A stretch of DNA of 64,000 nt, from positions 3,284 through 67,283 of the forward strand of contig JANRKY010000286.1 in the NCBI GenBank assembly GCA_033763135.1, given 5' to 3'. Of the stretch, positions 4,020 through 64,000 are shown in pieces (within the stretch, counting starts at the first letter, position 1; every line of letters starts with the position of its first letter). Source of the DNA: Blastocatellia bacterium. GTDB lineage: Bacteria > Acidobacteriota > Blastocatellia > RBC074. The notes beneath the pieces were generated by a model. That model was not told the DNA's origin. It made no database searches and worked only from the letters and a program-made list of their open reading frames with translations. The translations under genes were made by a program, and so were the position numbers.

Positions 4020-7000
4020 TCAATCGATCATCGCCTCGGCCTGGAGCATCAGCGTGCGATCGATCAGCTCGGCGAGCATGACGTCTGTCAGGCTGCCCCG
4101 CTGGAGCTTGCGATTGAGCAGATGATCCTCGGTCGACGGCAGGTCTTCGTTATAGGTGCGGCGCTTCTCGTAGGAGGCGGTCGGCCCCAGTTTTCGCAGG
4201 ACGGGCTGATAGCTGTCGAAGGCGGCCTGGCTCGTCTCGACGAGACAGCGGGTCTGTTTCTTCTCGGCGATGAAGATATGCAGGCCGCGCTCGAGTTCGA
4301 GCTTCAGAAAGGCCTGCGGGAACTGGATGCCGAGCAGGATGGCGGCGACGCCGTCGATGGGCGCGGCGAAGAACTTCGCCGGCGTCTCGACCGGGATTCG
4401 CTGCAGGGCGGCGACGGTCGGCTCCTTCTTTTTCGAGGGGCGCGCCGCTTTGTGAATGAAATAGCAGAGCGAGATCTTTCGATCATGCAGCTTCGCGTAG
4501 GAATGATAGAGCTCCGCCAGTTCGAAGAGCCGCCGGGGCGATTCGCCATAGATCGCCAGCGTGACGACGTCCGGATTCTTGATGCGAAGCGCGTAGAGAT
4601 CGGTCAGGATGCGGTTCCAGCGGTTGGAGAGGGCATCGACGCGAACGCCGGCCTGCGTGAGATCGATTGTCTTCTTGCCGTAGAACTGGAGGAGCAGGTC
4701 GGCTTCGACCTGATTGATGTCGGCGCAGAAGTCGGCGATCGTCTGGCGCAGTTTTTTCAGCTGCGGGAGGGCTTCCAGACCGGCGAGGTCCTGGGGATTC
4801 TTCCATTTGCTTGTCTGGACGCGTTTTTCCAGGCGTTCGAGCGAGAAGATCTCGTTCTGCAGATTTCGCAGCGCGGCGCTGCGTTCGAGTTTTTGGGCGC
4901 GTCGACGGTAGAGCTGGCAGGACAGGGCGAGCAGCTTCGGCCGGTTGTTCTGCTGTTGGGTCTGGGCGGCGGCGCTCTCGGCGACTTTGCGGGTGTGCCA
5001 GGAGAGATGATCGGCCTCGACGCGAATGGCGATCTCGGCGACCTCGTTCGATTCGACCTGACAGAGTTCGACGGAGAGCGGCGCGACAAGTTCGCGTTCG
5101 ATGGCGCGTTTGAGCGGCCGGGCGCCGTATCGGGGATCGTAGCCGCGGCGTGCGAGATGGCGCGTGACCTCGTCGTCGATCTTGAGAACGACGTCGCGGA
5201 ACCGGAGCCCGTCGCGATGGCGGATCTTTTCGATCTCGCGTTCGGCGATTCGCAGGACCGTCGCTTCGTCGAGCGGGGCGAAGGGAACGATGCGGTCGAT
5301 GCGATTGAACATCTCGGGGCGCATCGCCTGGCGCACGGCGTTGGTGAAGTGTCGCGCGGCGGCCTCGCGCGTGGCATTGGCTTCGCCGAATCCCACGAGG
5401 CCGCGCTGGAACGACTGCGCGCCCAGATTCGACGTCATGATCACGACGGAGTTGGAGAAATCGGCGACGCGTCCCATGGCGTCGGTCAATCGGCCCTCGC
5501 CGAGCACCTGCAGCAGCAGATCGAAGAAGGAGGGATCGGCCTTTTCCAGTTCATCGAGCAGCACGACGGAGAAGGGTTGTTCCCGGACCTGCGCCGTCAG
5601 CAGGCCTTCTTTCCCGAAGACGCCGCCGACGAGGCGTGTGACGGCGAGCGGGTCGGCGTATTCACTCATATCGAACCGGACCATGCGGCCGCGATCCTGA
5701 AACAGAAATTCGGCCAGCGCCTTGGCCATCTCGGTCTTGCCGACGCCCGTCGGGCCGATGAAGAGCAGTGACGCGATCGGTTTTCGCGGTCGCGTCAGGC
5801 CGGCCTTGACGGTCGCCAGCAGATCGACGATCAGATGCACGGCGTCCGGCTGTCCCACGACCCGCGAGGCGAACCACTCCCGCACCGATTCCGGCTCCAT
5901 CCGCTCGTCTTCGCTGAGCAGCAGACGGGGCAGGCCCGTCTCTTTCGAGAAGGCGCGAATGACGTCCTCGGACTGCAGCTCCCGCTCGGTCTCGTGATCC
6001 TGCAGCAGGTTTCGAAGAAAGCGCACGGGGCGCCCCGGGCTGGCCGAATAGCCCGCGTATCGCTGATGGAGCTGATCGATGCGTTCGAGCGCCTCCAGAT
6101 GAATGCGGTCGTTCCCCTTCTCGACGGTGTCGGCGAGAGCGTAGCCGAGCAGGACGCCGCGCCGTCGCTCGGCGGTCGGCTCTTCGACCTTGATCTGCTG
6201 AAAGATGTCGAGCATCTTGCGATTGGCGCGATCGACGTGGGCGGCCTGTTCCGGCGTGCACTCCGCGATCACGAGCGCGTCGCCGCGCGCGATGAAGGGG
6301 CGCAGAAAGTCGGCGATGCCCTGTTCATTCCCGACATATTTTCCGACCTCCATCAGCTCGACGAGATTGCCGAAATAGAGGATCGCCCGCTGTTGCGCGG
6401 CCTCCTGCCAGAGCTGCCGGCATCGCTCCTGCCATTGTCCGAAGCCCGACATGCCCGCGACGAGGCGGGAGCCGTTCGTCGCATAAAAGGGCGTATGGGC
6501 GAACTGAAAATCGGCGCGGCGGCGGATCAGTTCGAAGACCGCCGCCGTCTTTCCGACGCCCGACGGGCCGACCAGCAGGACGCTGCGCGGAGACTTGCCC
6601 GAGAGGGCTTCCGCCATCTGCGCGACGACGGCCTCCATTTCATAGGCGACCGGCAGCGGGCGCGTCGTCAGATCGGTTGCGGCCTCGGCGAGGGCGGATC
6701 GCTTCTTCTCCTCGAACACGTTCTGTCGCGAGGCGATCTGTCGCGGCGTGAGCGCGTCGAGCTCGACCGTGTCCGCGGCGATGCGCAGGTCGATCTCCCG
6801 CTGCAGCCAGACAAGCCGGGCGAGCGATTCGCCGGCGCCCCGGCGCGCAAGCTCCGCGCGAATGTGGGGCGCGATGATCCGGTCGAGCGCCTCCATCGTC
6901 GCCGCTTTGGTCGAGACGATCTCGATGCCGAGCGTCGGCAGAAAGGCGATCGCGGCCGCGTCTCCATGCATCCACCGCACCCCGCGAAAACGAAGCTGCA

Positions 7001-7259: not shown

Positions 7260-7602
7260 CTGTAATTGAGAATTGACAATGGAGAATTGATAATTGGCAG
7301 CCGTCCGCCGCGGCGCCCGCCAACTATCAACCATCAATTGTCAAATTTCAATTCTCAACTATCAATTCTCGTCTCTTGCCGCATTTCTTCTCGCGGGTTA
7401 CATTGCCTTTCGCACGAGCAATACATCCCTTTACGAATCAGGCCGGCGGGAACTGGGAATTGAGAATTGAGAATTGAGGATTGAGAATTGATCGTCCGTC
7501 GACATCGATGTCGACGGCCAGGGCTCCACGATCAATCGTCAATTCTCAATTCTCAATTCTCAATTCTCAATTCTCAATTCCCCGGGCGTTTTCGAGGCAT
7601 TC
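7260..7602. repeat. AT-rich island of nested inverted repeats built from AATTGAGA/TCTCAATT octamers. It lies in the divergent promoter region between the AAA+ ATPase gene and the SDR gene.
   Basis: IR-A has imperfect arms at 7263-7297 and 7321-7370. IR-B has 37 nt arms at 7456-7492 and 7538-7574 with 2 mismatches. They flank a perfect 22 bp palindrome CCGTCGACATCGATGTCGACGG at 7496-7517. Confidence 0.85.
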
Positions 7603-8939: not shown

Positions 8940-9040
8940 GAGATTGCCACAGAGCCACGGAGGCACAGAGTCGAGAGCGGAGAAAATCCGGTTTTTCTGG
9001 CATTCTCCGCGCCTCTGTGGCTCTGTGGCCTGTCTCCCGT
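8940..9040. repeat. Long imperfect hairpin whose arms are tandem CCACAGAG octamers.
   Basis: The left arm GCCACAGAGCCACGGAGGCACAGAG... pairs with the right arm ...GCGCCTCTGTGGCTCTGTGGC. Intergenic, between the NIPSNAP gene and the TPP-enzyme gene. Confidence 0.6.
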
Positions 9041-10679: not shown

Positions 10680-11882
10680 ATGAACTTCGAATATACCGAC
10701 AAGGTCAAATACCTGCAGAAGAAGCTGTCGTCCTTCATGGACGAATACATCTACCCCAATGAAGCCGCGTATTACGAGCAGCTCAACACGGGCGAGCGCT
10801 GGAAGGTTCTGCCCGTCATCGAGGAGTTGAAGCCGAAGGCGAAGGCCGAGGGGTTGTGGAATCTTTTTCTTCCCGAAAGCGAGCACGGGGCGGGGCTGAC
10901 GAATCTGGAATATGCGCCGCTGTGCGAAATCATGGGGCGGGTTCCGTGGTCGGCCGAAGTCTTCAACTGTTCGGCGCCCGACACCGGAAACATGGAGGTG
11001 CTCGTTCGCTACGGCAGCGAAGAGAACAAGGCGCAGTGGCTGACGCCGCTGCTCAACGGCGAGATCCGCTCCTGTTACGCGATGACGGAGCCTGAGGTGG
11101 CCTCGTCGGACGCGACGAACATCTGTTCGAGCATCGTTCGCGACGGCGACTCGTACGTCATCAACGGCCGCAAGTGGTGGACGTCCGGCGCCGGCGATCC
11201 GCGATGCCGCATCGCGATCTTCATGGGAAAGACCGATGTCACCGCGCCGACCCACAAGCAGCAGTCGATGATCCTCGTGCCGATGGACGCGCCGGGCGTG
11301 AAGGTCATGCGCATGCTCAATGTTTTCGGCTATGACGATGCGCCGCACGGCCACGCGGAGGTCCTCTTCGAGAACGTCCGCGTCCCGGCCGGAAACATTC
11401 TTCTCGGAGAGGGGCGCGGTTTCGAGATCGCCCAGGGGCGGCTCGGTCCCGGCCGCATCCACCACTGCATGCGCACGATCGGACTCGCTGAACGCTCGCT
11501 CGAAGCGATGTGCAAACGTGTCAAGCATCGCGTCGCGTTCGGAAAGACGATCGCCGAGCAGGGGACCATCCGCGCGGACATCGCCGCCTGCCGCATCGAG
11601 ATCGAACAGGCGCGCCTGCTGACCCTCAAGGCCGCCTATATGATGGACACCGTCGGCAACAAGGTCGCCCGCGCCGAGATCGCCATGATCAAGGTCGTCG
11701 CTCCCAACATGGCGCTTCGCGTCATCGATCGCGCGCTTCAGGCGCACGGCGGCGGCGGCGTCAGCCAGGACTTCCATCTGGCCAGCGCCTGGTCGCATGC
11801 CCGCACCCTGCGCCTCGCCGACGGACCGGACGAGGTCCATCGCGAGACCATCGCCAAACTCGAATTGAAGAAGTACGAGTAG
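10680..11882 (+). CDS. Acyl-CoA dehydrogenase (ACAD10/11-like, FadE family).
   Basis: 400 aa. [13 protein letters not shown] and the C-terminal catalytic region are typical of the ACAD fold. AAGGAG RBS. Confidence 0.85.
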
Positions 11883-11965
11883 GGACAGGCCCCCGTGCCT
11901 GTCCTCGAATTGAAGAAGTACGAGCAGGGACAGGCCCCCGTGCCTGTCCCCGCGTCTCCCCGTCC
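11862..11965 (+). repeat. Tandem ~45 bp duplication of the ACAD gene's last codons, each copy followed by a GGACAGGC-CCCCGT-GCCTGTCC hairpin.
   Basis: CTCGAATTGAAGAAGTACGAG[T/C]AGGGACAGGCCCCCGTGCCTGTCC occurs twice in direct repeat. The first copy carries the TAG stop. Confidence 0.6.
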
Positions 11966-16835: not shown

Positions 16836-17777
16836 TCACGAAAGCGAGTCGAGCAGGGAGCGCATGGCCTGCGGCATCGGTGCGTTGAAGATCATCGGCT
16901 GCCCCGTCGCCGGGTGCTTCAACTCCAGCCGCGAAGCGTGCAGTTGATGATGTTTTAGGCGAAGGGCGCCGGCCAGTTCGTCCGCGGCGCCCTTGTAGAA
17001 AGGATCGCCGACGATTGCGTGGCCGATCAGCTGGCAGTGGATGCGAAGCTGGTGGGTGCGGCCGGTGAGCGGTTCGAGTTCGAGAAGCGTGTGGTTCGCG
17101 TACCGGGTTCGCACCTTGTAGCGGGTCTGGGCCGGCCGGGTCTCCTTGCCCTCGCGCATCACGCGCCAGTGGGGAAAGATCGCCGGATCGAAGCCGATCG
17201 GCGCGTCGATCTCGCCCTCGCTCGTCGCCACGCGTCCGCAGACCAGCGCCTGATAGAACTTCTTCACCCAGCGCTCGCGGAAGTGTTTGGAGAGCGTACG
17301 ATGGGCCCGCAGCGTCTTGGCGATGATGATCACCCCGGAAGTGTTCCGATCCAGCCGGTGCACCAGCCCCGGACGAATCGCCTCGCCGCTCGATTGCCAG
17401 AAATGCCAGGCCAGGGCATTCATCAGCGTCCCCGATTTCTCGCGGCCCGACGGGTGAACCAGCAGCCCGACCTGTTTGTTGAGGACGATGATCTCCGCAT
17501 CCTCGTGCAGCACCTCGAGCGGAATCGCCTCCGGCGTCCCCGAGGACTTCTCCGCCGCGAACAGCTTCACCGAGACGCGGTCGTCCGGCCGCAGGCGCGC
17601 GCCCTTCAGCGAATTCGCGCCGTTCACCAGCGCATCGCCCTCCGCAATCAGGCGGCGAATCCGCGTCAGACTGACCTTCGGCAGTTTTCCGGCGATGAAC
17701 TCGTCGAGCCGCGGCTTGCCCTCCGCGACCGTGAATTCGAAGCTCAATCGTTCGGGATCGATCTCGGGCTCAGCCAT
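16836..17777 (-). CDS. RluA-family pseudouridine synthase.
   Basis: Catalytic motif VHRLDRNTSGVIIIAK. N-terminal S4-like domain. Confidence 0.85.
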   Translation of the reverse strand: MAEPEIDPERLSFEFTVAEGKPRLDEFIAGKLPKVSLTRIRRLIAEGDALVNGANSLKGARLRPDDRVSVKLFAAEKSSGTPEAIPLEVLHEDAEIIVLNKQVGLLVHPSGREKSGTLMNALAWHFWQSSGEAIRPGLVHRLDRNTSGVIIIAKTLRAHRTLSKHFRERWVKKFYQALVCGRVATSEGEIDAPIGFDPAIFPHWRVMREGKETRPAQTRYKVRTRYANHTLLELEPLTGRTHQLRIHCQLIGHAIVGDPFYKGAADELAGALRLKHHQLHASRLELKHPATGQPMIFNAPMPQAMRSLLDSLS

Positions 17778-18246
17778 GATTTCTCGAACTCCGGACCAGC
17801 AGCACGATCAGCACGAGCGCCGCGATCATATCGAACGACATCAGCCCCACCGAGACCCGATGCAACATGTCAAAAGTGATCTTCGCCGGGTCGCTCGCCG
17901 GGAGCGCCGCGATCCCCTCGCCGAACTGCAGCCGGATTCCGTGCAGCCGGTTCGAGACATAAAATCGCGAGATTGCCATCGACGCGACCATCATCGCCAG
18001 CGCGATCAGCTCGAACAGAAAGCGCCGTCGGTTTTGCTCGCGCGAAAAGAGCAGCAGCACGATCAGCAGCAGCCCGAGCCCCATCCCGATGAATTCCGTC
18101 GCCGCCAGATTGCGCGAGACGACGTTGCCCGCCAGATGCTGCAACGGCAGAACCGAGAAGGCCACCGGCGCGACGATGAAGCTGAAATAGCACATCACCC
18201 CGAACCAGAACCCCAGAATCGCCACTCGTATCTTGTCGGATGTCAT
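17770..18246 (-). CDS. Small integral membrane protein (about 4 transmembrane helices, possibly DUF4149-like). Its start forms an ATGA overlap with the stop of the upstream DUF309 gene.
   Basis: The internal start MTSDKIRVAILGFWFGVMCYF is preferred. The longer ORF upstream is a GC-rich low-complexity artefact. Confidence 0.5.
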   Translation of the reverse strand: MTSDKIRVAILGFWFGVMCYFSFIVAPVAFSVLPLQHLAGNVVSRNLAATEFIGMGLGLLLIVLLLFSREQNRRRFLFELIALAMMVASMAISRFYVSNRLHGIRLQFGEGIAALPASDPAKITFDMLHRVSVGLMSFDMIAALVLIVLLVRSSRNHG

Positions 18247-18593
18247 AATCGATCCTGCAGGGCAATCCGCGGCCGCGTCGCGGCGCCGTCGAAATGGGCC
18301 TTCACCGCGTCCGCGAACGCCCGCGCGTCCAGCCCCATCATCGTCGCCGGAAGCGCCGCCAGCCGCGCCTGCGCGCGCGCATGCACGCTCGCCGCTCCCT
18401 TCGCGTTTCCTCGCTCCCGGTGATGCAGCGCCGCCGCGATCTGGATCATCGCATGCAGAAACTCCCGCTCCGCGCCCTCCGCGCGCAGCCAGATCGTCTC
18501 CCAGACCTCGTGGCATTCGAAATAGCGCCCCTCGTTAAAAAGCGCGATCCCCTCGGAATATTCGGCGGCGGCGTTCATCTTCCTGGAACTCAT
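18243..18593 (-). CDS. DUF309-family protein.
   Basis: EGIALFNEGRYFECHEVWETIW matches the DUF309 signature. 116 aa. Confidence 0.65.
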   Translation of the reverse strand: MSSRKMNAAAEYSEGIALFNEGRYFECHEVWETIWLRAEGAEREFLHAMIQIAAALHHRERGNAKGAASVHARAQARLAALPATMMGLDARAFADAVKAHFDGAATRPRIALQDRL

Positions 18594-18606
18594 GATTCAT
18601 GCCAGT

Positions 18607-18730
18607 CCCACAGGTCCCATAGGTCTCATAGGTCTCATAGGTCCCATAGGTCCCACAGGTCCCATAGGTCCCATAGGTCCCATAGGTCCCATAGGTCCCA
18701 TAGGTCCCATAGGTCCCATAGGTCCCATAG
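18607..18730. repeat. Tandem 9 bp repeat (CCCATAGGT)n of 13.8 units that fills the rhodanese-to-DUF309 spacer.
   Basis: The units are CCCACAGGT, CCCATAGGT, CTCATAGGT, CTCATAGGT, CCCATAGGT, CCCACAGGT, eight perfect CCCATAGGT units, and a final partial copy. Confidence 0.95.
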
Positions 18731-18736
18731 CACCCT

Positions 18737-19063
18737 TCAATACCGCGGCACCGACGGATCCACTCGCAGCGACCAGTCGTCGATCCCGCCGAGCAGATTC
18801 TTGAGGTTCGTGAATCCCTGCGCCGCCAGAAACTGGCAGGCGCGATCCGAACGCATGCCGTGATGACAGTGCAGCACGATCTCCTGTTCCTTGTCGCCCA
18901 GTTCCGCCGCCCATTGCATGATCCGGCCGAGCGGACGCAGCTCCGCGCCCGCGATCTGCGCGGCCTGAAATTCCGACGGCTCGCGCACATCGATCAGACG
19001 GATCGTTTCGCCCGCGTCGCGCCGCGCCTTCAACTCTTCCACGGTGATGGTTCCGTAGCTCAT
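18737..19063 (-). CDS. Single-domain rhodanese (sulfurtransferase, GlpE/PspE-like).
   Basis: Active-site loop LHCHHGMRS. 108 aa. Confidence 0.8.
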   Translation of the reverse strand: MSYGTITVEELKARRDAGETIRLIDVREPSEFQAAQIAGAELRPLGRIMQWAAELGDKEQEIVLHCHHGMRSDRACQFLAAQGFTNLKNLLGGIDDWSLRVDPSVPRY

Positions 19064-27679: not shown

Positions 27680-27860
27680 AACGCCTCACGCGAAGGCGCG
27701 AAGATGGGAAGAGCCCGGTCTTCTTCGCGCCTTCGTTTTCGATTCAGAAGCCATGCGAGCCGCGGGATCGAAAAAAGAACGGGAAGATCAAGAAAACTCG
27801 GGAATCGCTTTTCTTTGCGTCTTCGCGGCTTCGCGTGAGGCCCTCTTCTTGCTAACTTTC
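27680..27860. mobile_element. MITE-like ~180 bp element with terminal inverted repeats (copy 1 of 2).
   Basis: TIRs CCTCACGCGAAG...CTTCGCGTGAGG. Internal hairpin CGAAGGCGCGAAGA / TCTTCGCGCCTTCG. The 47598-47800 copy shares the ends, the internal hairpin and conserved internal blocks. Confidence 0.6.
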
Positions 27861-35164: not shown

Positions 35165-35249
35165 AAATCATCCACGAAGTTACACGAAGAAACGCGAAGG
35201 GAAGCCTCTTCTTCGTGCCTCTTCGTGTGGCGTTGTGGATGATTTTTCA
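35165..35249. repeat. CACGAAG-family palindromic hairpin element (copy 1 of 3).
   Basis: The arms AAATCATCCACGAAGTTACACGAAGAA... and ...CTTCGTGTGGCGTTGTGGATGATTT pair. Shares its core with the copies at 38044 and 39965. Confidence 0.6.
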
Positions 35250-38043: not shown

Positions 38044-38135
38044 AGTCGACTCCGCAGAAAATCATCCACGAAGTCACACGAAGAAACACGAAGAAGAGGA
38101 TTCCCTTCGTGCTTCTTCGTGTGACTGCGTGGATG
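38044..38135. repeat. CACGAAG-family palindromic hairpin element (copy 2 of 3), lying between convergent genes.
   Basis: The arms AAAATCATCCACGAAGTCACACGAAGAAACACGAAG and CTTCGTGCTTCTTCGTGTGACTGCGTGGATGATTTT pair. Confidence 0.65.
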
Positions 38136-38227
38136 ATTTTTTAATTGCTTCCGTACGTCGCCACGCGACGTGAACGACTCCATTCAAAAGGCAAATTGCA
38201 GCCGGCGCGCCGGCTGCGATTTGCCTT

Positions 38228-38974
38228 TTATTCCGTCGCCGCGAGTCGCTGCCGCAGGATTTCGAAGAGGACGATGCCGGAGGCCACGCTGACGTTGAGC
38301 GAGGTGATGTGTCCGCGCATGGGGATGGAGACGAGGGCGTCGCATTTTTCGCGGACGAGTCGTCGGATGCCCTTGCCTTCGCTTCCCAGCACGATGGCGG
38401 TCGGCACGTTGAAATCGAAGTCTGAATAGGGCGTTTCCGTTCCGCCTTCCACGCCGACGACCCACACGCCGCGTTCCTTGAGGTCTTCGATCAGCCGGAC
38501 GAGATTGGTCACGCGGGCGATGCGCAGATATTCGATCGCGCCGGCGGAGGTCTTGGCGACGGTGTCGGTCAGGCCGGCGGCGCGATGTTCGGGGAGAAAG
38601 ACGCCGTCGACGCCCGCGCCCTCGCAGGTTCGAAGGATCGCGCCCAGATTGTGGGGGTCCTCGATGCCGTCGAGCAGGACGACGAGGGGATTGGGCGAGA
38701 GCGAATCGAGAATCGCCTCGGGATCGATATAGGCGCTGCCGGCATTGAGGGGCGGCGCGAAGGCGATCACGCCCTGGTGGTTGGCGCCGCGGGTCATTTC
38801 GTCCATGGCGCGGCGATCGCGTTTTTCGATGGCGATTCCGGCGCGTCGCGCGATCTCGAGCAGTTCGTTCAATCGGGCGGGGTTGGCGCCCGTGGAGACC
38901 ACGATCCGCGAGATCTTCCGGCGGCGCGCGCGCAATGCTTCGAGCACGGGAAGCAGTCCGTATATCTGATTCAT
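38228..38974 (-). CDS. rlmB: 23S rRNA (guanosine-2'-O)-methyltransferase RlmB (SpoU/TrmH family).
   Basis: SpoU substrate-binding N-domain plus C-terminal SPOUT motifs (LVLGSEGKGI, VSIPM...SLNVSVA). Confidence 0.85.
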   Translation of the reverse strand: MNQIYGLLPVLEALRARRRKISRIVVSTGANPARLNELLEIARRAGIAIEKRDRRAMDEMTRGANHQGVIAFAPPLNAGSAYIDPEAILDSLSPNPLVVLLDGIEDPHNLGAILRTCEGAGVDGVFLPEHRAAGLTDTVAKTSAGAIEYLRIARVTNLVRLIEDLKERGVWVVGVEGGTETPYSDFDFNVPTAIVLGSEGKGIRRLVREKCDALVSIPMRGHITSLNVSVASGIVLFEILRQRLAATE

Positions 38975-39964: not shown

Positions 39965-40060
39965 CTCCACAAAAGAACATCCACGAAGGCACGCGAAGAG
40001 CCACGAAGATAGGACTTATCTTCGTGGCTCTTCGTGTGCCTTCGTGGATGTTCTTTTATG
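39965..40060. repeat. CACGAAG-family palindromic hairpin element (copy 3 of 3). About a 43 bp stem, between convergent genes.
   Basis: CCACAAAAGAACATCCACGAAGGCACGCGAAGAGCCACGAAGATA ... TATCTTCGTGGCTCTTCGTGTGCCTTCGTGGATGTTCTTTTATGG. Confidence 0.65.
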
Positions 40061-40069
40061 GAGGTTCGG

Positions 40070-43601: not shown

Positions 43602-45320
43602 TCAGCGTCGAACGAGCCGGAAATTGTCGACGACGAAATTGCTGCGGACATACCGGTTCTGATTTCCGACGGCGAAGATCGTGATCGGCTGGGCGCCGTC
43701 GGGGATGGTGAAATTGACGCGCAGCGTCGCGCGCTGTCCCGCCGGCGACGCGGAAGAGACGCCCGGCGCTCCGTTATTGAAATTGACTCCGAGCGTGGCA
43801 ATCGTGCCGATGCTCGGAATGACGTCGCAACTCAGTGTGTAATCCCCGGCCGGAAGCGCGATCTCCTGCGCGCAATAATCGACCAGCCGGCGCCCGTTGG
43901 CCTGGAACTTCAACGCATACGCGCCGTCGGTGACGAGCGACTCGTCGTTGACCATGAGGGCGCCGCCGCCCCCGACGAAATAGGTGTAGACCCGCCACCC
44001 GCTGTAATTTCCCGTCTCGAAGCTCGGATTGACGATCACGTCGATCGGCGCGCCTTCACCGCCCGGTGGCGGCGTCGGCGTCGGCGTCGGCGTCGGAGTA
44101 GGCGTGGGAGTCGGCGTTGGCGTCGGCGTGGGAGTCGGGGTCGGAGTCGGGGTCGGCGTCGGGCTCGGAACCGGCGTTGCGGTCGGGCTCGGGCTCGGGC
44201 TCGGGCTCGGCGAGGGGCCCGGATTCGGGCCGCGCGGGCCAATGCGACGGATGGTGTGCGTGAAATAGTCGCTGACGAAGATGTTGCCCTTCGAATCGAC
44301 GGCGACGCCGCCGGGGCGGACAAAGGAGGCCTGCAGGGCCGGTCCGTCGACATGGTCTTCGACGCCGTTGCCCGCGACGGTCGAGACATAGCGGGTCGTC
44401 AGGTCGAGCTTGCGGACCGCGCCGTTATGCCAGTCGCCGATGATGATGTTGCCGTCGGCGTCCCGCGCGACGGCCGTGGCGAGGAAGAACGACGCCTGCA
44501 GCGCGGGGCCGTCCTTCAATTCGAAATTGCCGCTGCCCGCGATCGTGGTCACCTCGCCCGCGGGCGTGACCTGGCGGATGCGGCTGTTGAAGAAATCGCC
44601 CACGATCAGATTCCCCTGCGCGTCGAGACAGAGCTGCGGCGCCGCGCCGGAAAAACTGAAGGAGGCCTGCTCGCCGATCCCGTCCGCATAGCCGTTGTAA
44701 TTGCCCGCAAGCGTCGAGACATAGCGGTTCACATCGATCTTGCGAATGAGGTTGGTGGCGGAATCCAGCACATAGATGTTGCCGGCGTCGTCCACCGCGA
44801 CGCTCGTCGGCCGCGCGAAGCGCGCGGAGAGGGCCGCGCCGTTCTGATTGCCGTACGCGCCGCTGCCGGCAATCGTCGTCACCGCGCCGCTCGGCGCAAT
44901 CTGCCGGATGCGGTTGTTCCCGTAGTCCGCCACGAGAATATTGCCGTTCTTGTCGACCGCCACGCCCGATGGGCCGTAGAACCGGGCCGTCGTGCCGATG
45001 CCGTTGGCGTAGCCCTGCACCCCGCCCGCGATCGTCGTGACGTTGCCCTCCGGATCGATCTTCCGAATTCGCGCCCCCCGAAAGTCCGCGACAATCAGAT
45101 TGTCATCCTTGTCGATCGCCATCCCCAACGGCGCATTGAACCGCGCCGACGCGCCCGGACCGTCCGCGTAGCTGCCCGAAAACGCGCCCCCCGCAAACGT
45201 GCTCACATAGAGCCCGCTCTGCGCCTCGCTCTTTTGCAGAGCTGTCATTGCCAGTATTGAAAGGGAAAGAATCAGGACGAGCGATACGCGGCAGGAAAGA
45301 ACTCTTTGCAACAGATTCAT
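43602..45320 (-). CDS. Secreted NHL-repeat beta-propeller protein with a (Thr/Ser-Pro)n linker and a C-terminal jelly-roll-like domain.
   Basis: Repeated NHL-type motifs (GIAVD, NRIRKI). Linker [45 protein letters not shown]. Confidence 0.75.
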
Positions 45321-45445
45321 CCAAACGGCTCCTGAGGTTTTCTTGCGGAATTGCAAGCGGTCTTTTCGTATCTTCTGTCTTTTTGTGAGGACGAGCTAAC
45401 GCAAAGCCCTCAGATACGAATCGCCGGGGCCGGGTTGCATGGGAG

Positions 45446-45545
45446 GCGAAAAAAATGCTGAATGCTGAATGATGAACGATGAATCAAGAGGACGTCGCCG
45501 CTGATTCATCATTCATCATTCATCATTCAGCATTCATCGTTCAGC
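45446..45545. repeat. Long hairpin with tandem GAATGAT/GAATGCT heptamer arms. It abuts the mscS stop codon.
   Basis: GCTGAATGCTGAATGATGAACGATGAATCA ... TGATTCATCATTCATCATTCATCATTCAGCATTCATCGTTCAGC. Confidence 0.6.
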
Positions 45546-47597: not shown

Positions 47598-47800
47598 GCC
47601 TCACGCGAAGACGCGAAGGCGCGAAGCGGAAAGAGGCAGGTCTTCTTCGCGTCTTCGTTTTCGATTCAGAAACCCCGCGAGCCGCGCGGCCAGCGGGGCT
47701 GAAAAGAAAGAACGCGAAGAGGAAGAAAACTCGGAACTTACTCGTCTTTGCGTCTTCGCGGCTTCGCGTGAGGCCCTCTTTTTACAAACTTAATGCCCTT
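47598..47800. mobile_element. MITE-like element with terminal inverted repeats (copy 2 of 2).
   Basis: Shares the TIRs CCTCACGCGAAG/CTTCGCGTGAGG, the internal hairpin and conserved internal blocks with the 27680-27860 copy. Confidence 0.6.
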
Positions 47801-61200: not shown

Positions 61201-61474
61201 GCTTCCTCCTGACGGATATGGCGAAACTCCCGCCACCCTTCCGCAATATGATTTGGTGTTTGAAAAGACGCGCAGGATAGCACACGCCCACAGGGCTTTC
61301 CAGCAGGGCGCCGCGGCCCGCTGATTTCAAGATTCTCCTGATCTCGACTTTTTCCGTCACTCGCGCGCTTCACCAGGCAACCGCATTGACTGAACATACG
61401 AAAAGGAACGAGAATTCCGACCGGAGCCAGATTCTGTACTGTCCGATCAGGAGACGAATCATTGGGGGAGCGCG

Positions 61475-61777
61475 ATGTTGCCTGAAGCGATCAGAGCCAA
61501 ACAAGAGCCGCTGAAAGAGGTATGCCGGAGGTATCGGATCCGGGAACTAAGCCTGTTCGGCTCCATGGCGCGCGGGGATTTCAATGACCAAAGCGACGTG
61601 GATCTGCTGGTCGAATTCGAGCCGGAGATGGAGGTCGGATTTTTGACTCTGAGCCGATTGCATCGCGAATTGTCGTCGATACTCGGGCGCCCGATCGACC
61701 TCGTCCCAAAACTTGGATTGAAGCCGGCAATCAAACAGGAAGTACTGGAAAGCGCGGAGTTGGTCTATGCGGCATGA
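61475..61777 (+). CDS. MNT-type nucleotidyltransferase antitoxin (HepT/MNT pair).
   Basis: GSMARGDFNDQSDVDLLVEF. Confidence 0.8.
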   Translation: MLPEAIRAKQEPLKEVCRRYRIRELSLFGSMARGDFNDQSDVDLLVEFEPEMEVGFLTLSRLHRELSSILGRPIDLVPKLGLKPAIKQEVLESAELVYAA

Positions 61778-62111
61778 TGAGCTTTATATCCGGGATATGG
61801 TCGAAGCGGCGGCAGCCATTGAGACGTTTCTCGTGGGCGTGACGCGGGAGGCATTCCTCGACAGCGACCTGCTCCGCAGCGCTGTGTTGCATAAACTGAC
61901 GATCATTGGCGAAGCCGCGTCGAGGATCTCCCGTGAGTTTGCCAATCGTTTCCCGGAAGTCGAATGGGCGGCGATTTCCGGCTTTCGCAACATCGCCGTT
62001 CACGAATACTTTGCCGTGGACTGGAAAATCGTATGGGTGGGCGCGACAAAAGAGGCGCCGATTCTCGGCGCTCAGATCAATGAGATTTTGAAAAAAGAAT
62101 TTCCTGAATAG
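61767..62111 (+). CDS. HepT-like (DUF86) RNase toxin.
   Basis: FRNIAVHEY motif (R-x4-HxY). Overlaps the MNT gene by 11 bp. Confidence 0.8.
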   Translation: MRHDELYIRDMVEAAAAIETFLVGVTREAFLDSDLLRSAVLHKLTIIGEAASRISREFANRFPEVEWAAISGFRNIAVHEYFAVDWKIVWVGATKEAPILGAQINEILKKEFPE

Positions 62112-62216
62112 CACCGGCCCCACACTCGCCGAAAAGGCCGCGCCCGCTTGCCGGATTGATTTCAAGGGCAGAGGCCGGCGAGTTGGGGAAAGCCGTCACC
62201 GTCTCTTCGTTTTCCA

Positions 62217-63083
62217 TCACTTCTTCATCGCCTGCAGCGCCCGGGCGGCGGTCTGTTTGACGGTCGGGTCGGCGTCGTTGGCGGCGGCCTCTTCGAGGGC
62301 CGGGCGGGCGTAGTCGATGCCGATTTTGCCGATCCATTCGGCGGCCCAGCGGCGGAGTTCGGGATCGTTGCTGAGTTTGAGGATCGCGGCGAACTCGGAC
62401 GGGCCGTTGCGGGTGTTCTTCAATTCGAACATCGTCTCTTCGGCCAGTCTGCGGGTCGATTCGTGCCTGCTCTTGAGAAACTGATAGAGAAAGAGGATCG
62501 CCTTGCGGGAATAGCTGACGTCGCGCATCTGGGCGCAGGTCAGGATCGCCGCGCAGCGAACGCGCATGTCGTCCGGATCGGCGATGTCGGCGCCGCTCGG
62601 ATTGGCGATGCCGTTGAGGACCATGTTCCGCGGCCGGAACGTCTTGAAGGAGGCCAGCGGACTGATCAACGCCATGCGCACCCGCCAGTCCGGGTCCTGC
62701 ATCAGGTTGATCAGATCCTCGGCCGAATCGGGGCGGCCGAGCCGCCCGAGAGATTCGGCCGCCGCCGCGCGAACCATGGCGTCCGGGTCCTTCAACGCGT
62801 CGATCAACGGATCGACGGCGCGATCGTCGCAGCTCGCGGCCAGTCCCTGCGCGGCCTGCGCCCGCGTCTTCGCGTCCTTCTCCTTGAGCGACGCGATCCC
62901 TTTCGCAACCGCATCCTCAGCCGAGGTCCCGGCCTTGAGGCTCGCGCACGGTTCATAGATCGGCTGGGATTTGATCGTGGCGCCGCCGGTCTTCGCTGGG
63001 GGCTGCGCTCCGGCGCAGGCGCTTACGAAGAGCAAGACCGTGAGCAGCCAGAGGCCGGAAGGGAATCCTGCATTTTTCTTCAT
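62217..63083 (-). CDS. HEAT/PBS-lyase-repeat lipoprotein.
   Basis: Lipobox LFVSAC. Repeated DxxVRxxAAxALG units. Confidence 0.65.
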   Translation of the reverse strand: MKKNAGFPSGLWLLTVLLFVSACAGAQPPAKTGGATIKSQPIYEPCASLKAGTSAEDAVAKGIASLKEKDAKTRAQAAQGLAASCDDRAVDPLIDALKDPDAMVRAAAAESLGRLGRPDSAEDLINLMQDPDWRVRMALISPLASFKTFRPRNMVLNGIANPSGADIADPDDMRVRCAAILTCAQMRDVSYSRKAILFLYQFLKSRHESTRRLAEETMFELKNTRNGPSEFAAILKLSNDPELRRWAAEWIGKIGIDYARPALEEAAANDADPTVKQTAARALQAMKK

Positions 63084-63104
63084 ACAACTTACTCGGAACA
63101 GAAA

Positions 63105-63200
63105 AGATTCGGACACAAGGGGAATGGACAGGATGAACAGGATGTTTCAGGATTCACAGGATTGTCCGTCAACGCCGAATCCTGTGAATCCTGAAACATC
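63105..63200. repeat. Perfect 38 bp inverted repeat with tandem CAGGAT(G/T) arm units.
   Basis: GGACAGGATGAACAGGATGTTTCAGGATTCACAGGATT - 14 nt loop - AATCCTGTGAATCCTGAAACATCCTGTTCATCCTGTCC. Confidence 0.75.
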
Positions 63201-63260
63201 CTGTTCATCCTGTCCATTTTTCACCGTCTGAATGTTGCCGTCTCTGATTCGGAACGGACG

Positions 63261-64000
63261 TTAAGCGGCCTTGACGACCGGTTTATCGGGATTCGCCGGC
63301 GTGAGCAGCTTGAGCGCCCGCGACGAGTGCGAGAGCGCGATCACCGTGTTGCTGACGAACTTGCTGTACCAGTCCCAATAGGGGCGGAGATCGGTCGCCC
63401 GCAGCGCGACCAGATGATCGTAGAGCAGCTGCTCGCCCGCGCGCCACTGTTTCTTCTCCTCGGCCGTCGGCGTGAAGAGCTTGTGCATCTCCGCGTAGTT
63501 GAGCGCCTCGAATGCGTGGCCCAGAAACCGAATCTGCGAGCGCAGCCGCATCACCTCGATCGTATCGGACGGCGCCGCGCCCCGCGTGACGACCTTGCCG
63601 TCCTGCGCGACCGCCAGGCGGTTGAGCATGTCCGGTCCCAGCCCCTTCGCCGCGTTCGCCTCGCGGTCGATCGCCTTCGAATCGCCGATCAGCCGCCGGA
63701 TCGAGACCTGATACATCTCCTTCAGCCGCGCTTCCAGCTTGTTCTCCCGATAGCCCATCTTCAGGCACGAGAAGAGCCCATAGACCGAATGCATCCCGTA
63801 GCAGCTGTATTTCGTGATCTGCTGACGGAATTCGAGCGACTCGTCCTCACCGCGATCGAGCGACTCCTGAAGCCCGTCACACATCAGCTCGTAACTTCCC
63901 AGCGCTCCGTTGATCACGTCGTTGAGGTTGATCTTCTCTCCCCACGCATTGGTCCAGATCGGCTGCGAGACGGGCACGATCAACGAAAACGCGATCAACC
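63261..64000 (-). CDS. Hypothetical protein. The N-terminus lies beyond the window end.
   Basis: ORF 63261..63998 is open at the window end. No recognisable family. Confidence 0.4.
   Translation of the reverse strand, partial: LIAFSLIVPVSQPIWTNAWGEKINLNDVINGALGSYELMCDGLQESLDRGEDESLEFRQQITKYSCYGMHSVYGLFSCLKMGYRENKLEARLKEMYQVSIRRLIGDSKAIDREANAAKGLGPDMLNRLAVAQDGKVVTRGAAPSDTIEVMRLRSQIRFLGHAFEALNYAEMHKLFTPTAEEKKQWRAGEQLLYDHLVALRATDLRPYWDWYSKFVSNTVIALSHSSRALKLLTPANPDKPVVKAA

Follow-up and report, generated by a model that had tools for sequence, protein, structure and literature searches.

In a 64-kb stretch of DNA from a Blastocatellia bacterium, which we call the window and whose positions serve as coordinates throughout, two genes on the minus strand are separated by a long perfect hairpin built from CAGGAT units. 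The inverted repeat spans positions 63123–63218 and has two arms of 41 nt, complementary at 41 of 41 positions, with 14 nt between them. Each arm carries four CAGGAT units at a spacing of 9, 10, and 9 nt. The left arm (63123–63163) reads AATGGA-CAGGAT-GAA-CAGGAT-GTTT-CAGGAT-TCA-CAGGAT-T; it agrees with the consensus GACAGGATTAACAGGATTTTTCAGGATT(T/A)ACAGGAT of a repeat family described below and has the outer end AAT(G/A)GACAGG of that family. The right arm (63178–63218) is the exact reverse complement, an ATCCTG array without any mismatch, so that three non-consensus bases are mirrored. The loop (63164–63177, GTCCGTCAACGCCG) partly resembles that of two copies in a relative, L083 and L082 (TCnnnnTTnACnGAnn on the gene strand), and is unrelated to the interior of most other copies. 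No strand is assigned to these or the other repeat features unless stated; L-numbers denote fetched loci or contigs and P-numbers proteins of the GxxExxY type. The G+C content of the hairpin is 46–47% compared with 63% for the window. An earlier reading of the sequence (the original prediction) had placed a perfect 38-bp inverted repeat with a 14-nt loop at 63105–63200. Both the periodic repeat and its loop are real, and the 38-nt arm lies inside the 41-nt arm; the coordinates given, however, lie about 18 nt too far left, so that part of the right arm was lost.

The position between two genes of the same strand, just upstream of a HEAT-repeat lipoprotein gene, was also correctly recognized. 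The upstream gene, which we call gene A, is present in the window with its 3′ part (63261–64000, minus strand); its stop codon at 63261 lies 42 nt before the hairpin. In relatives, gene A codes for ~465 aa, and a Pfam search with it gave no match. The downstream gene (62217–63083, minus strand) starts with an ATG at 63083, 39 nt after the hairpin; its product matches Pfam HEAT_2 and related families, and a lipobox-like VSAC can be seen in the sequence. An NCBI metagenome-assembled genome (MAG) labelled Blastocatellia bacterium codes for a protein identical to this HEAT protein, and SucD, encoded ~2 kb from the hairpin, has its affinity with Acidobacteriota. Exact-match look-ups with HEAT and SucD had retrieved no entry, and a genome scan using HEAT had revealed no relative. 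As RNA, the spacer would fold with −90.5 kcal/mol, compared with −47.1 ± 3.8 kcal/mol for 200 shuffled sequences (z = −11.3). A scan of the window for intrinsic terminators did not call the hairpin; the 41-bp stem lacks the combination of a short GC-rich stem and a U-tract. Rfam gave no match at the gathering score, the sub-threshold matches being animal miRNA hairpins. Within the hairpin, a consensus scan detected one sigma-70-like site on the minus strand at 63161–63188 (TTCACA, 16 nt, GACAAT). A perfect TTGACA occurs in other array copies (GGATTGACAGGAT), and the arrays may thus carry promoter-like hexamers.

By aligning the spacer with the orthologous gene A–HEAT junctions of relatives, we find that 161 nt of the window (63095–63255, minus strand) are extra. 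The order of the two genes is kept in relatives with a HEAT identity of 85%, 74%, 72%, and ~60%, and the spacer between them measures 16 nt in L081, 13 nt in L082, 84 nt in L085, and 43 nt in L001 versus 177 nt in the window. In L081, the closest relative (81–87% DNA identity across the neighbouring genes), the junction reads TAACGTCCG-CGG-AAGTTGTATG, and in the window the same TAACGTCCG and AAGTTGTATG flank the 161 nt. As the junction of L081 is empty with clean flanks, the hairpin arrived by insertion into an operon-like junction. Judged from these alignments, this copy was inserted recently in the lineage of this genome, into an otherwise tight junction.

The hairpin itself does not fill the insertion. 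One outer flank (63095–63122) is outside the CAGGAT family; its AAGATTCGGACAC recurs in an element of L081 (12715–12853) with ACGGA units; this element is a hairpin within a 138-nt insertion at a place where the window has ~16 nt. The other outer flank (63219–63255) consists of GACGG-type units (CAGAGACGGCAACATTCAGACGG on the minus strand). Because the outer 65 nt share AAGATTCGGACAC and GACGG-type units with the L081 element, a different periodic element seems to have left a remnant here within which the CAGGAT hairpin is nested, and the segment 63219–63255 is probably what is left of this second element that encloses the hairpin. The ends of the insertion carry an imperfect GTTCCGA repeat, which is not present at the empty L081 site.

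A BLAST search with the spacer against the fetched loci located the hairpin core elsewhere in the relative with 74% HEAT identity, at 5880–5979 of L083 and at 1–68 of L082. The former copy has 42-nt arms and lies ~180 nt downstream of the HEAT gene of that relative; the latter is found at the opposite end of the same contig as the HEAT-adjacent copy, and the sites are non-orthologous. The part common to the window and the relative is the hairpin of ~97 nt, and the flanks differ. Copies sharing the arm sequence are thus present at other sites in the relatives (L082, L083, and L084), and contig ends fall inside CAGGAT copies. A metagenome scan using a three-unit pattern gave at least 120 loci, and at least 120 metagenome contigs contain arrays, with up to five matches per 13 kb (L106). 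The original prediction regarded hairpins of this design as different sequences and not as copies of one element, which is unsupported for 63123–63218, as its arm sequence is common to the relatives and to at least 120 metagenome contigs. The element had no match in a plasmid collection and a single one among 2.9 million viral contigs, and thus it is not phage-borne. A literature search with the array strings retrieved no relevant paper, and neither the CAGGAT family nor its tie to GxxExxY genes described below was found there.

The architecture of the family is rather uniform. Of 223 arrays in the loci picked by the three-unit pattern, 184 contain four CAGGAT units, no more and no fewer, with distinct conserved spacers, and are therefore not freely slipping tandem repeats; the choice of loci by this pattern favours unit numbers and spacings that resemble it. 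Adjacent arrays are arranged as CAGGAT→ ←ATCCTG in 72 of 74 pairs, any other arrangement being found in two, and they enclose interiors of 1–206 nt of unrelated sequence. About 70 of the 223 arrays are solo. At the outer end the consensus is aaAAAT(a/g)GA followed by CAGGAT, so that an A-tract lies on one side of a pair and a T-tract on the other, and the similarity of the arms ends there. Paired copies favour gene 3′ ends (24 in convergent, 25 in tandem, and three in divergent spacers). Solo arrays are found in sense and antisense orientation 22 and 24 times beside gene starts and 30 and 38 times beside gene ends; our first impression that they are placed just upstream of start codons was contradicted by these counts. 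The lack of an orientation bias favours a feature acting at the DNA level over one acting at the RNA level such as CsrA binding.

The arrays can be found in consecutive spacers around hisA- and hisF-like ORFs (open reading frames; N-termini MSLLVIPAIDIKDGKCVRL and MGLAKRIIPCLDV) in L094 (4053–5737) and L117 (1379–2225), and therefore a single operon can be peppered by these elements. Other tandem units are near or abut CAGGAT arrays at ~1680–1726 of L145, 1252–1353 of L086, 3022–3090 and 9410–9535 of L137, and 3135–3427 of L138. Among these neighbours are GAGCAA units immediately adjacent to an array and perfect hairpins with arms of GTCGTT hexamers, a hint that insertion sites may be common to several types of repeat.

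Is it the stem or the sequence of the arms that is conserved? The original prediction expected the arms to co-vary. We compared 31 distinct paired copies with a null model in which the right arms were shuffled among the copies, and covariation across the family is absent: 87.3% of the cells are paired versus 87.6 ± 0.5% after shuffling, and the covariation score is 0.055 versus 0.057. Derived bases are shared by both arms 17 times, compared with 16.0 ± 3.0 under permutation, and variable spacer positions are free to differ between the two arms of one element. Since the arms do not co-vary, it is the array sequence and not the stem that is conserved, and a protein acting on the arrays would be expected to recognise their sequence, not their structure. 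A structure-specific binding protein had been proposed; a binding protein remains a reasonable assumption, the preference for structure does not fit. The window copy, with no mismatch between the arms, has its three derived bases mirrored in both of them, and the same is true of L179, which belongs to the same subfamily. By these changes, two units of each arm have turned from CAGGATT into CAGGATG. Perfectly symmetric copies are in fact in excess (three versus 0.44 expected, p ~0.006), which leaves room for occasional copying from arm to arm; lineage-specific subfamilies or a shifted preference of a binding protein could explain the mirrored bases equally well. Loop length does not predict the symmetry of the arms (Spearman −0.19, p 0.29).

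The family is tied to a protein-coding gene. Five array pairs are wider, and in three of the five, on unrelated contigs, the arrays enclose a single ORF of ~136–163 aa. The enclosed ORF codes for a GxxExxY protein (TIGR04256, E ~1e-42; PF13366, PDDEXK_3, E ~1e-40). The ORF begins right at the inner unit of one array, with a start codon that adjoins this unit or overlaps it (CACAGGATGAAAGAG in L160), and its reading frame runs into the other array and terminates with ...NPVNPEKSC, the stop codon being in or at that array. In the 2.1 Mb of fetched DNA, these three genes and one fragment beside a solo array are the only GxxExxY genes. As these first loci had been picked by the array, sampling by protein was added. 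Three genes (P0212, P0232, and P0187) were chosen by their protein without regard to arrays, and all of them are embedded in CAGGAT arrays, P0212 and P0232 between two complete hairpins and P0187 in a compact cassette of 3+2 units within an ABC-transporter operon. Moreover, among the 120 closest homologues, the array codes for the tail in 94 (for example NPVNPEKSC and HPVNPVNPV); 81 of these tails are of the NPxNP type, 10 of the FIL type, and three derive from a forward array, and some mis-called N-termini of GxxExxY proteins are translated arrays. The tails ending in EN followed by the stop, found in some GxxExxY proteins, were considered to be encoded by GAATTGA arrays, which would have tied a second repeat family of the window to the gene; this was ruled out, as the stop is the TGA of TGACAGGAT. 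For P0377, P0383, P0384, P0389, and P0403 the gene calls fuse the GxxExxY ORF via an array-encoded NPVNPV to the downstream protein, and thus the arrays distort annotation. The fused protein starts with a prepilin-type N-terminal segment (AFTILELLVAM...), which fits hosts of the Planctomycetes–Verrucomicrobia–Chlamydiae (PVC) group.

The gene-bearing form also shows presence and absence at an orthologous site. At a junction between an ABC_tran gene and a gene for a substrate-binding protein (SBP), the cassette is present in L210 and L221 and absent in L219 and L220, and the ends of the cassette, TTTAGACAGG...CCTGTCTAAA, are the ends of the hairpin. At this junction L219 (3575–3636) has an unrelated AT-rich spacer of 62 nt with a small inverted repeat (TTCAATCATC ... 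GATATTGAA). The nearest named relatives of the host of the cassette (L216) are Kiritimatiellia, Opitutae, and Lentisphaerae. With a Kiritimatiellia-like host on the one hand and the CAGGAT element in the Blastocatellia window on the other hand, arrays and GxxExxY genes are combined in at least two phyla. The window copy with its 14-nt interior contains no ORF and has only the arrays and the ends in common with the GxxExxY cassette. When all fetched loci were scanned for ORFs enclosed by periodic inverted arrays, no type besides GxxExxY was detected, save one classical REPtron-like unit on an Acidobacteriaceae contig (L025, 304–995), in which an ORF for an IS200-like Y1 transposase (MAHRYPNILIHCVFSTKERQ...) lies between GC-rich inverted arms of 48 nt.

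GxxExxY proteins form a very large family with 16,529 clusters at 50% identity (E ≤ 1e-3). A survey of PD-(D/E)XK enzymes from 2012 lists their function as unknown and reports multiple transfers (PMC3424549). We found no solved structure for GxxExxY by sequence. An AlphaFold model built from 35 sequences is confident (predicted local distance difference test, pLDDT, 88.3) and has a PD-(D/E)XK nuclease core. It resembles Cas4 SSO0001, lambda exonuclease, RecB-type nuclease domains, and an uncharacterised restriction-endonuclease-like protein, with weak scores (E ~1e-3, template modelling score ≤0.54). Invariant in the alignment are the E of the GxxExxY motif, a D, and an ExK motif.

Taking these results together, we consider it rather probable that the hairpin is a copy of a dispersed extragenic palindromic family of inverted four-unit arrays, whose gene-bearing form is the GxxExxY cassette with a REPtron-like layout. 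Each arm is one conserved module of ~40 nt whose four CAGGAT units follow each other at intervals of about one turn of the helix, and two such modules are inverted around a short variable interior and elsewhere enclose the GxxExxY gene. The arms pair because both match one conserved sequence, the stem as such not being maintained. The selected feature is likely to be the sequence-specific recognition of the CAGGAT units on DNA, and the GxxExxY protein or a partner may recognise the arrays and spread or maintain them. The gene-less hairpins would then be non-autonomous relatives of the GxxExxY cassette. When transcribed, the window copy would give a 41-bp RNA duplex, and cutting by RNase III or stabilisation of the upstream message could be a by-product.

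The resemblance to repetitive extragenic palindromic (REP) sequences, their bacterial interspersed mosaic elements (BIME), and their REP-associated tyrosine transposases (RAYT) lies in the short extragenic palindromes that are numerous in a genome and mostly located at the 3′ ends of genes, in the one small gene between inverted repeat copies with most copies being gene-less, and in the presence and absence among relatives. To our knowledge, REPs with their RAYT transposase are the only dispersed palindromic repeats for which the responsible enzyme is known. The hallmark of REPs is a GTAG or CGTC tetranucleotide heading a palindrome of 20–40 nt (PMC3733652). The CAGGAT arms, on the contrary, are AT-rich arrays of ~40 nt without such a head, whereas REPs are GC-rich imperfect palindromes of 20–40 nt. 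In addition, the enclosed gene belongs to PF13366/TIGR04256 with a PD-(D/E)XK fold and is not a Y1/HUH transposase as in REPtrons, and the CAGGAT repeat is conserved across phyla, whereas REPs are usually species- or genus-specific. With miniature inverted-repeat transposable elements (MITEs), for example the Correia/NEMIS elements of Neisseria, the family shares the terminal inverted repeats around a short unrelated interior (72 pairs, 1–206 nt), the non-autonomous, abundant, intergenic, and often co-transcribed nature with long RNA hairpins, and the insertion polymorphism at orthologous sites (the window versus L081, L082, and L001; the cassette in L210 and L221 versus L219 and L220). However, the arms are internally periodic, no convincing target-site duplication was detected, and no DDE transposase with the same ends was found, the only gene sharing the ends being GxxExxY, which is no known transposase.

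Other repeats have a comparable organization. In Geobacter metallireducens, several families of paired tandem repeats with 16–48 copies each and of unknown function have been described as ‘global regulator binding sites’ (Aklujkar et al. 2009, PMC2700814). They likewise consist of two opposite-strand sites at variable distance with three to five tandem units of 7–9 nt, and they were read as IHF/HU sites without an associated gene and without a reported link to GxxExxY (PMC2700814). Compared by the published consensus only, their units (GTTGCTYN, TCTCCGTS[Y], and MTYCTGA) differ from CAGGAT. Tandem TAACTGA heptamers of Beggiatoaceae, Cyanobacteria, and Bacteroidetes (MacGregor 2015, PMC4679880) are also short intergenic units that occur across distant phyla without a known vehicle. 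These heptamers are mostly direct, variable in copy number, and located just upstream of start codons, whereas the CAGGAT module has a fixed number of four units and is found mainly in inverted pairs. We note that (TAACTGA)n forms the arms of a hairpin in a Pyrinomonadaceae MAG (L015, 2846–2926). The short tandemly repeated repetitive (STRR) sequences of cyanobacteria are comparable heptamer repeats. A further parallel is offered by the intervening sequences of 23S rRNA, in which a long stem, cleavable by RNase III, has a small ORF in its loop, the ORF belonging to an uncharacterised family with many copies; they differ by residing inside rRNA helices and by their other ORF family, whereas the CAGGAT elements are intergenic.

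Several observations weigh against a family of mobile palindromes served by GxxExxY. No GxxExxY gene was found in the 64-kb window or in the fetched contigs of the relatives, gene-bearing pairs are few (three of ~77 in the array-sampled loci), and only about a fifth of the more distant GxxExxY representatives have array-encoded ends. The interiors of 21 paired elements contain no remnants of the gene, and therefore a simple origin of the hairpins by internal deletion is unsupported. We found no target-site duplication of fixed length, the best candidate being a 3-nt match in 12 of 49 cases with AT-rich flanks. For the other hairpin families of the window, no gene partner was found in the fetched data, and the fixed unit number comes from loci sampled with the biased pattern mentioned above. 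The GxxExxY gene could also be a guest that targets pre-existing hairpins. It may also be asked whether the arrays are binding sites of a host nucleoid-associated or regulatory protein and whether the gene is a selfish guest, similar to a homing nuclease, that enters the centres of pairs, as some insertion sequences target the loops of REPs. This is favoured by the conservation of sequence and not of structure, by the spacing of 9–10 nt, which places the units on one face of the helix, by the ~70 solo arrays without partner, by the vast predominance of gene-less over gene-bearing pairs, and by the interiors free of gene remnants. The paired opposite-strand sites of G. metallireducens with their three to five tandem 7–9-mers, which have insertion sequences at a fixed distance (PMC2700814), also speak for it. 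Nevertheless, a regulatory site would not be expected to be present or absent at orthologous junctions and to coincide with assembly breaks, nor to occur in almost the same form in Acidobacteriota and in a Kiritimatiellia-like genome. In addition, the paired copies avoid divergent spacers, where promoters are located, and the start and stop codons of the ORF are built into the arrays, which suggests long co-evolution and not opportunistic insertion. Thus, we regard host binding sites with a guest gene as unlikely, while of the alternatives it is the one we take most seriously.

A role of the hairpin at the RNA level, as a terminator, as a stabiliser of mRNA 3′ ends, or as an RNase III site between gene A and the HEAT gene, would account for the strong bias of paired copies to gene 3′ ends, for the A-tract and T-tract outside opposite arms of the consensus, which resemble a two-way terminator, and for the very stable fold; a perfect 41-bp RNA duplex is a textbook substrate of RNase III. 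We nevertheless find this improbable. Compensatory changes that would maintain the stem are missing, past the hairpin the minus strand continues with CCCCUUGUG without any U-tract, in keeping with the negative terminator scan, and the site lies inside a junction that is operon-like in the relatives. Moreover, a bias to 3′ ends is expected of any insertion that is harmful in promoters, and solo arrays cannot form the stem. A conserved RNA fold is equally not indicated, both an Rfam match at the gathering score and compensatory base changes in the 31 copies being absent. The original prediction suggested that the hairpin could have been made in place: units would slip within an arm, and one arm would then serve as the template for the other, as in the correction of a quasipalindrome by template switching, a process which would explain all periodic-arm hairpins. 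Here the perfect symmetry of the window copy with its three mirrored bases, the excess of perfect copies (p ~0.006), and the mirrored derived bases of a second family (copy E of CACGAAG, see below) fit well, and the heptamer-arm hairpins at 7448–7582 and 45454–45541 with their unequal unit numbers do resemble slipping tandem repeats. For the CAGGAT hairpin this proposal is largely unsupported and we think it quite improbable, since the segment was inserted between clean flanks, copies in other genomes have the same arm sequence down to the non-repetitive spacers, the unit number is fixed at four, covariation is absent across the family, and mirrored changes are obtainable from lineage-specific subfamilies or a shifted protein preference. 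Finally, CAGGA(U/A/C)G is the repeat unit of CsrB RNA, and the CAGGAU units might be CsrA-type RNA-binding sites with the arrays serving translational control or as sponge elements. Besides the agreement of the unit, the last unit lies on the start codon (CAGGATG) in some solo arrays and in all cassettes, with the previous AGGA at Shine–Dalgarno distance. However, every GGA is base-paired in the hairpin, the solo arrays have no sense-strand bias, other families of the same design are devoid of GGA, and Rfam gave no CsrB-like match, which makes CsrA sites hardly credible.

Returning to the dispersed palindromic family with its GxxExxY cassette, a more far-reaching version can be formulated, which we put forward only tentatively and consider doubtful: the GxxExxY proteins may be the enzymes of an unrecognised class of small selfish elements, i.e. 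minimal PD-(D/E)XK nucleases which would recognise the four-unit arrays at both ends of their own cassette and, in several phyla, would mobilise or maintain this cassette together with gene-less palindromic derivatives that number hundreds in a genome. If true, this would be a second independent invention of the lifestyle of REPs and RAYTs, and the other periodic-arm families of this genome would be the footprints of sister systems. Should the link be functional, the very large GxxExxY family would obtain a role, the long AT-rich hairpins of GC-rich Acidobacteriota and PVC genomes would be explained, and concrete substrates for biochemistry would be at hand. Dispersed palindromic repeats shape the intergenic regions, the transcript ends, and the genome assembly of bacteria. 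For annotation, perfect hairpins of this kind should be treated as repeat copies and not as locus-specific regulators, and it should be kept in mind that automatic gene calls for GxxExxY commonly run on into the arrays, giving rise to the NPVNPEKSC-type tails. The single locus is an ordinary repeat copy; the noteworthy part is the family and its tie to GxxExxY.

The window contains at least 10 long intergenic hairpins with internally periodic arms and differing units. With a minimum of 24 nt for the arms and of 85% for their identity, nine inverted repeats are detected in the window versus 0–1 in 30 Markov-1 shuffles, and the shared design with different sequences that had been noticed before is thus enriched. 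Three further hairpins listed in the original prediction are real as well: one with GAATTGA heptamer arms in a divergent spacer (7448–7582; five versus six units and an inner GC-rich palindrome), one with GAATGAT heptamer arms, likewise in a divergent spacer (45454–45541), and one with CCACAGAG arms in a tandem spacer (8946–9029). A hairpin related to the first of these is found at 7264–7370. The likeness that had been seen between the loop of the CAGGAT hairpin and the palindrome at 7494–7503 is at chance level, as GTCCGTCAAC with up to one mismatch occurs eight times in the window versus 4.06 ± 2.04 times in shuffled sequences, 7 of 100 of which reach eight.

The CACGAAG family is represented by three copies in the window and by one in L081. 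From one end to the other, a copy consists of an A-tract, three units spaced 10 nt, a loop, the same units mirrored, and a T-tract; symmetric and decayed copies are mixed. Copy D (38056–38142) has the 10-nt unit spacing and the flanking A- and T-tracts and lies in a convergent spacer, copy E (39965–40063) is near-perfect with derived bases mirrored in both arms, and copy X (35165–35246) has asymmetric, decayed arms. A third family comprises copy C (27683–27841), with GCCTCACGCGAAGGCGCGAAG arms and an interior of ~110 nt, and copy G (47598–47774); the two are 81% identical over 171 nt. Besides CAGGAT, the unit families are CACGAAG, GCGCGAAG, GAATTGA, GAATGAT, CACAGAG, ACGGA, and GAACGCGGAT. The periodic-arm design is also present in the Acidobacteriota contigs L004, L015, L001, L042, and L045 and, with other units, in CAGGAT-bearing metagenome contigs.

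Some further features of the window may be mentioned. A two-gene module (61317–62219, with ORFs at 61475–61777 and 61767–62111, both on the plus strand) lies between the HEAT gene and sucD. In L081 and L001 these two genes are 135–273 nt apart or adjacent and the module is absent, so that it represents a second lineage-specific insertion, less than 1 kb from the hairpin. From their sequence the ORFs can be read as a putative nucleotidyltransferase-type antitoxin and a putative DUF86/HEPN-type toxin. In the convergent spacer of CACGAAG copy D, a GC-rich palindrome between AAAA and TTTT (38186–38229, AAAAGGCAAATTGCAGCCGGCGCGCCGGCTGCGATTTGCCTTTT) has the look of a classical two-way terminator. 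Fourteen tandem copies of the 9-mer GTCCCATAG (95% matches) form a direct array without a hairpin at 18605–18730, between the ORFs 17476–18423 (plus strand) and 18737–19063 (minus strand). A tandem duplication of 45 nt (11859–11949, 97% identity), each copy with a small GC-rich hairpin (GGGACAGGCCCCCGTGCCTGTCC), is located at the end of the ORF 10680–11882. Finally, an imperfect hexamer repeat (CGGCGT/CGGAGT, ~23 copies) at 44070–44212 lies inside the ORF 43602–45356 (minus strand) and is probably a repetitive coding segment.

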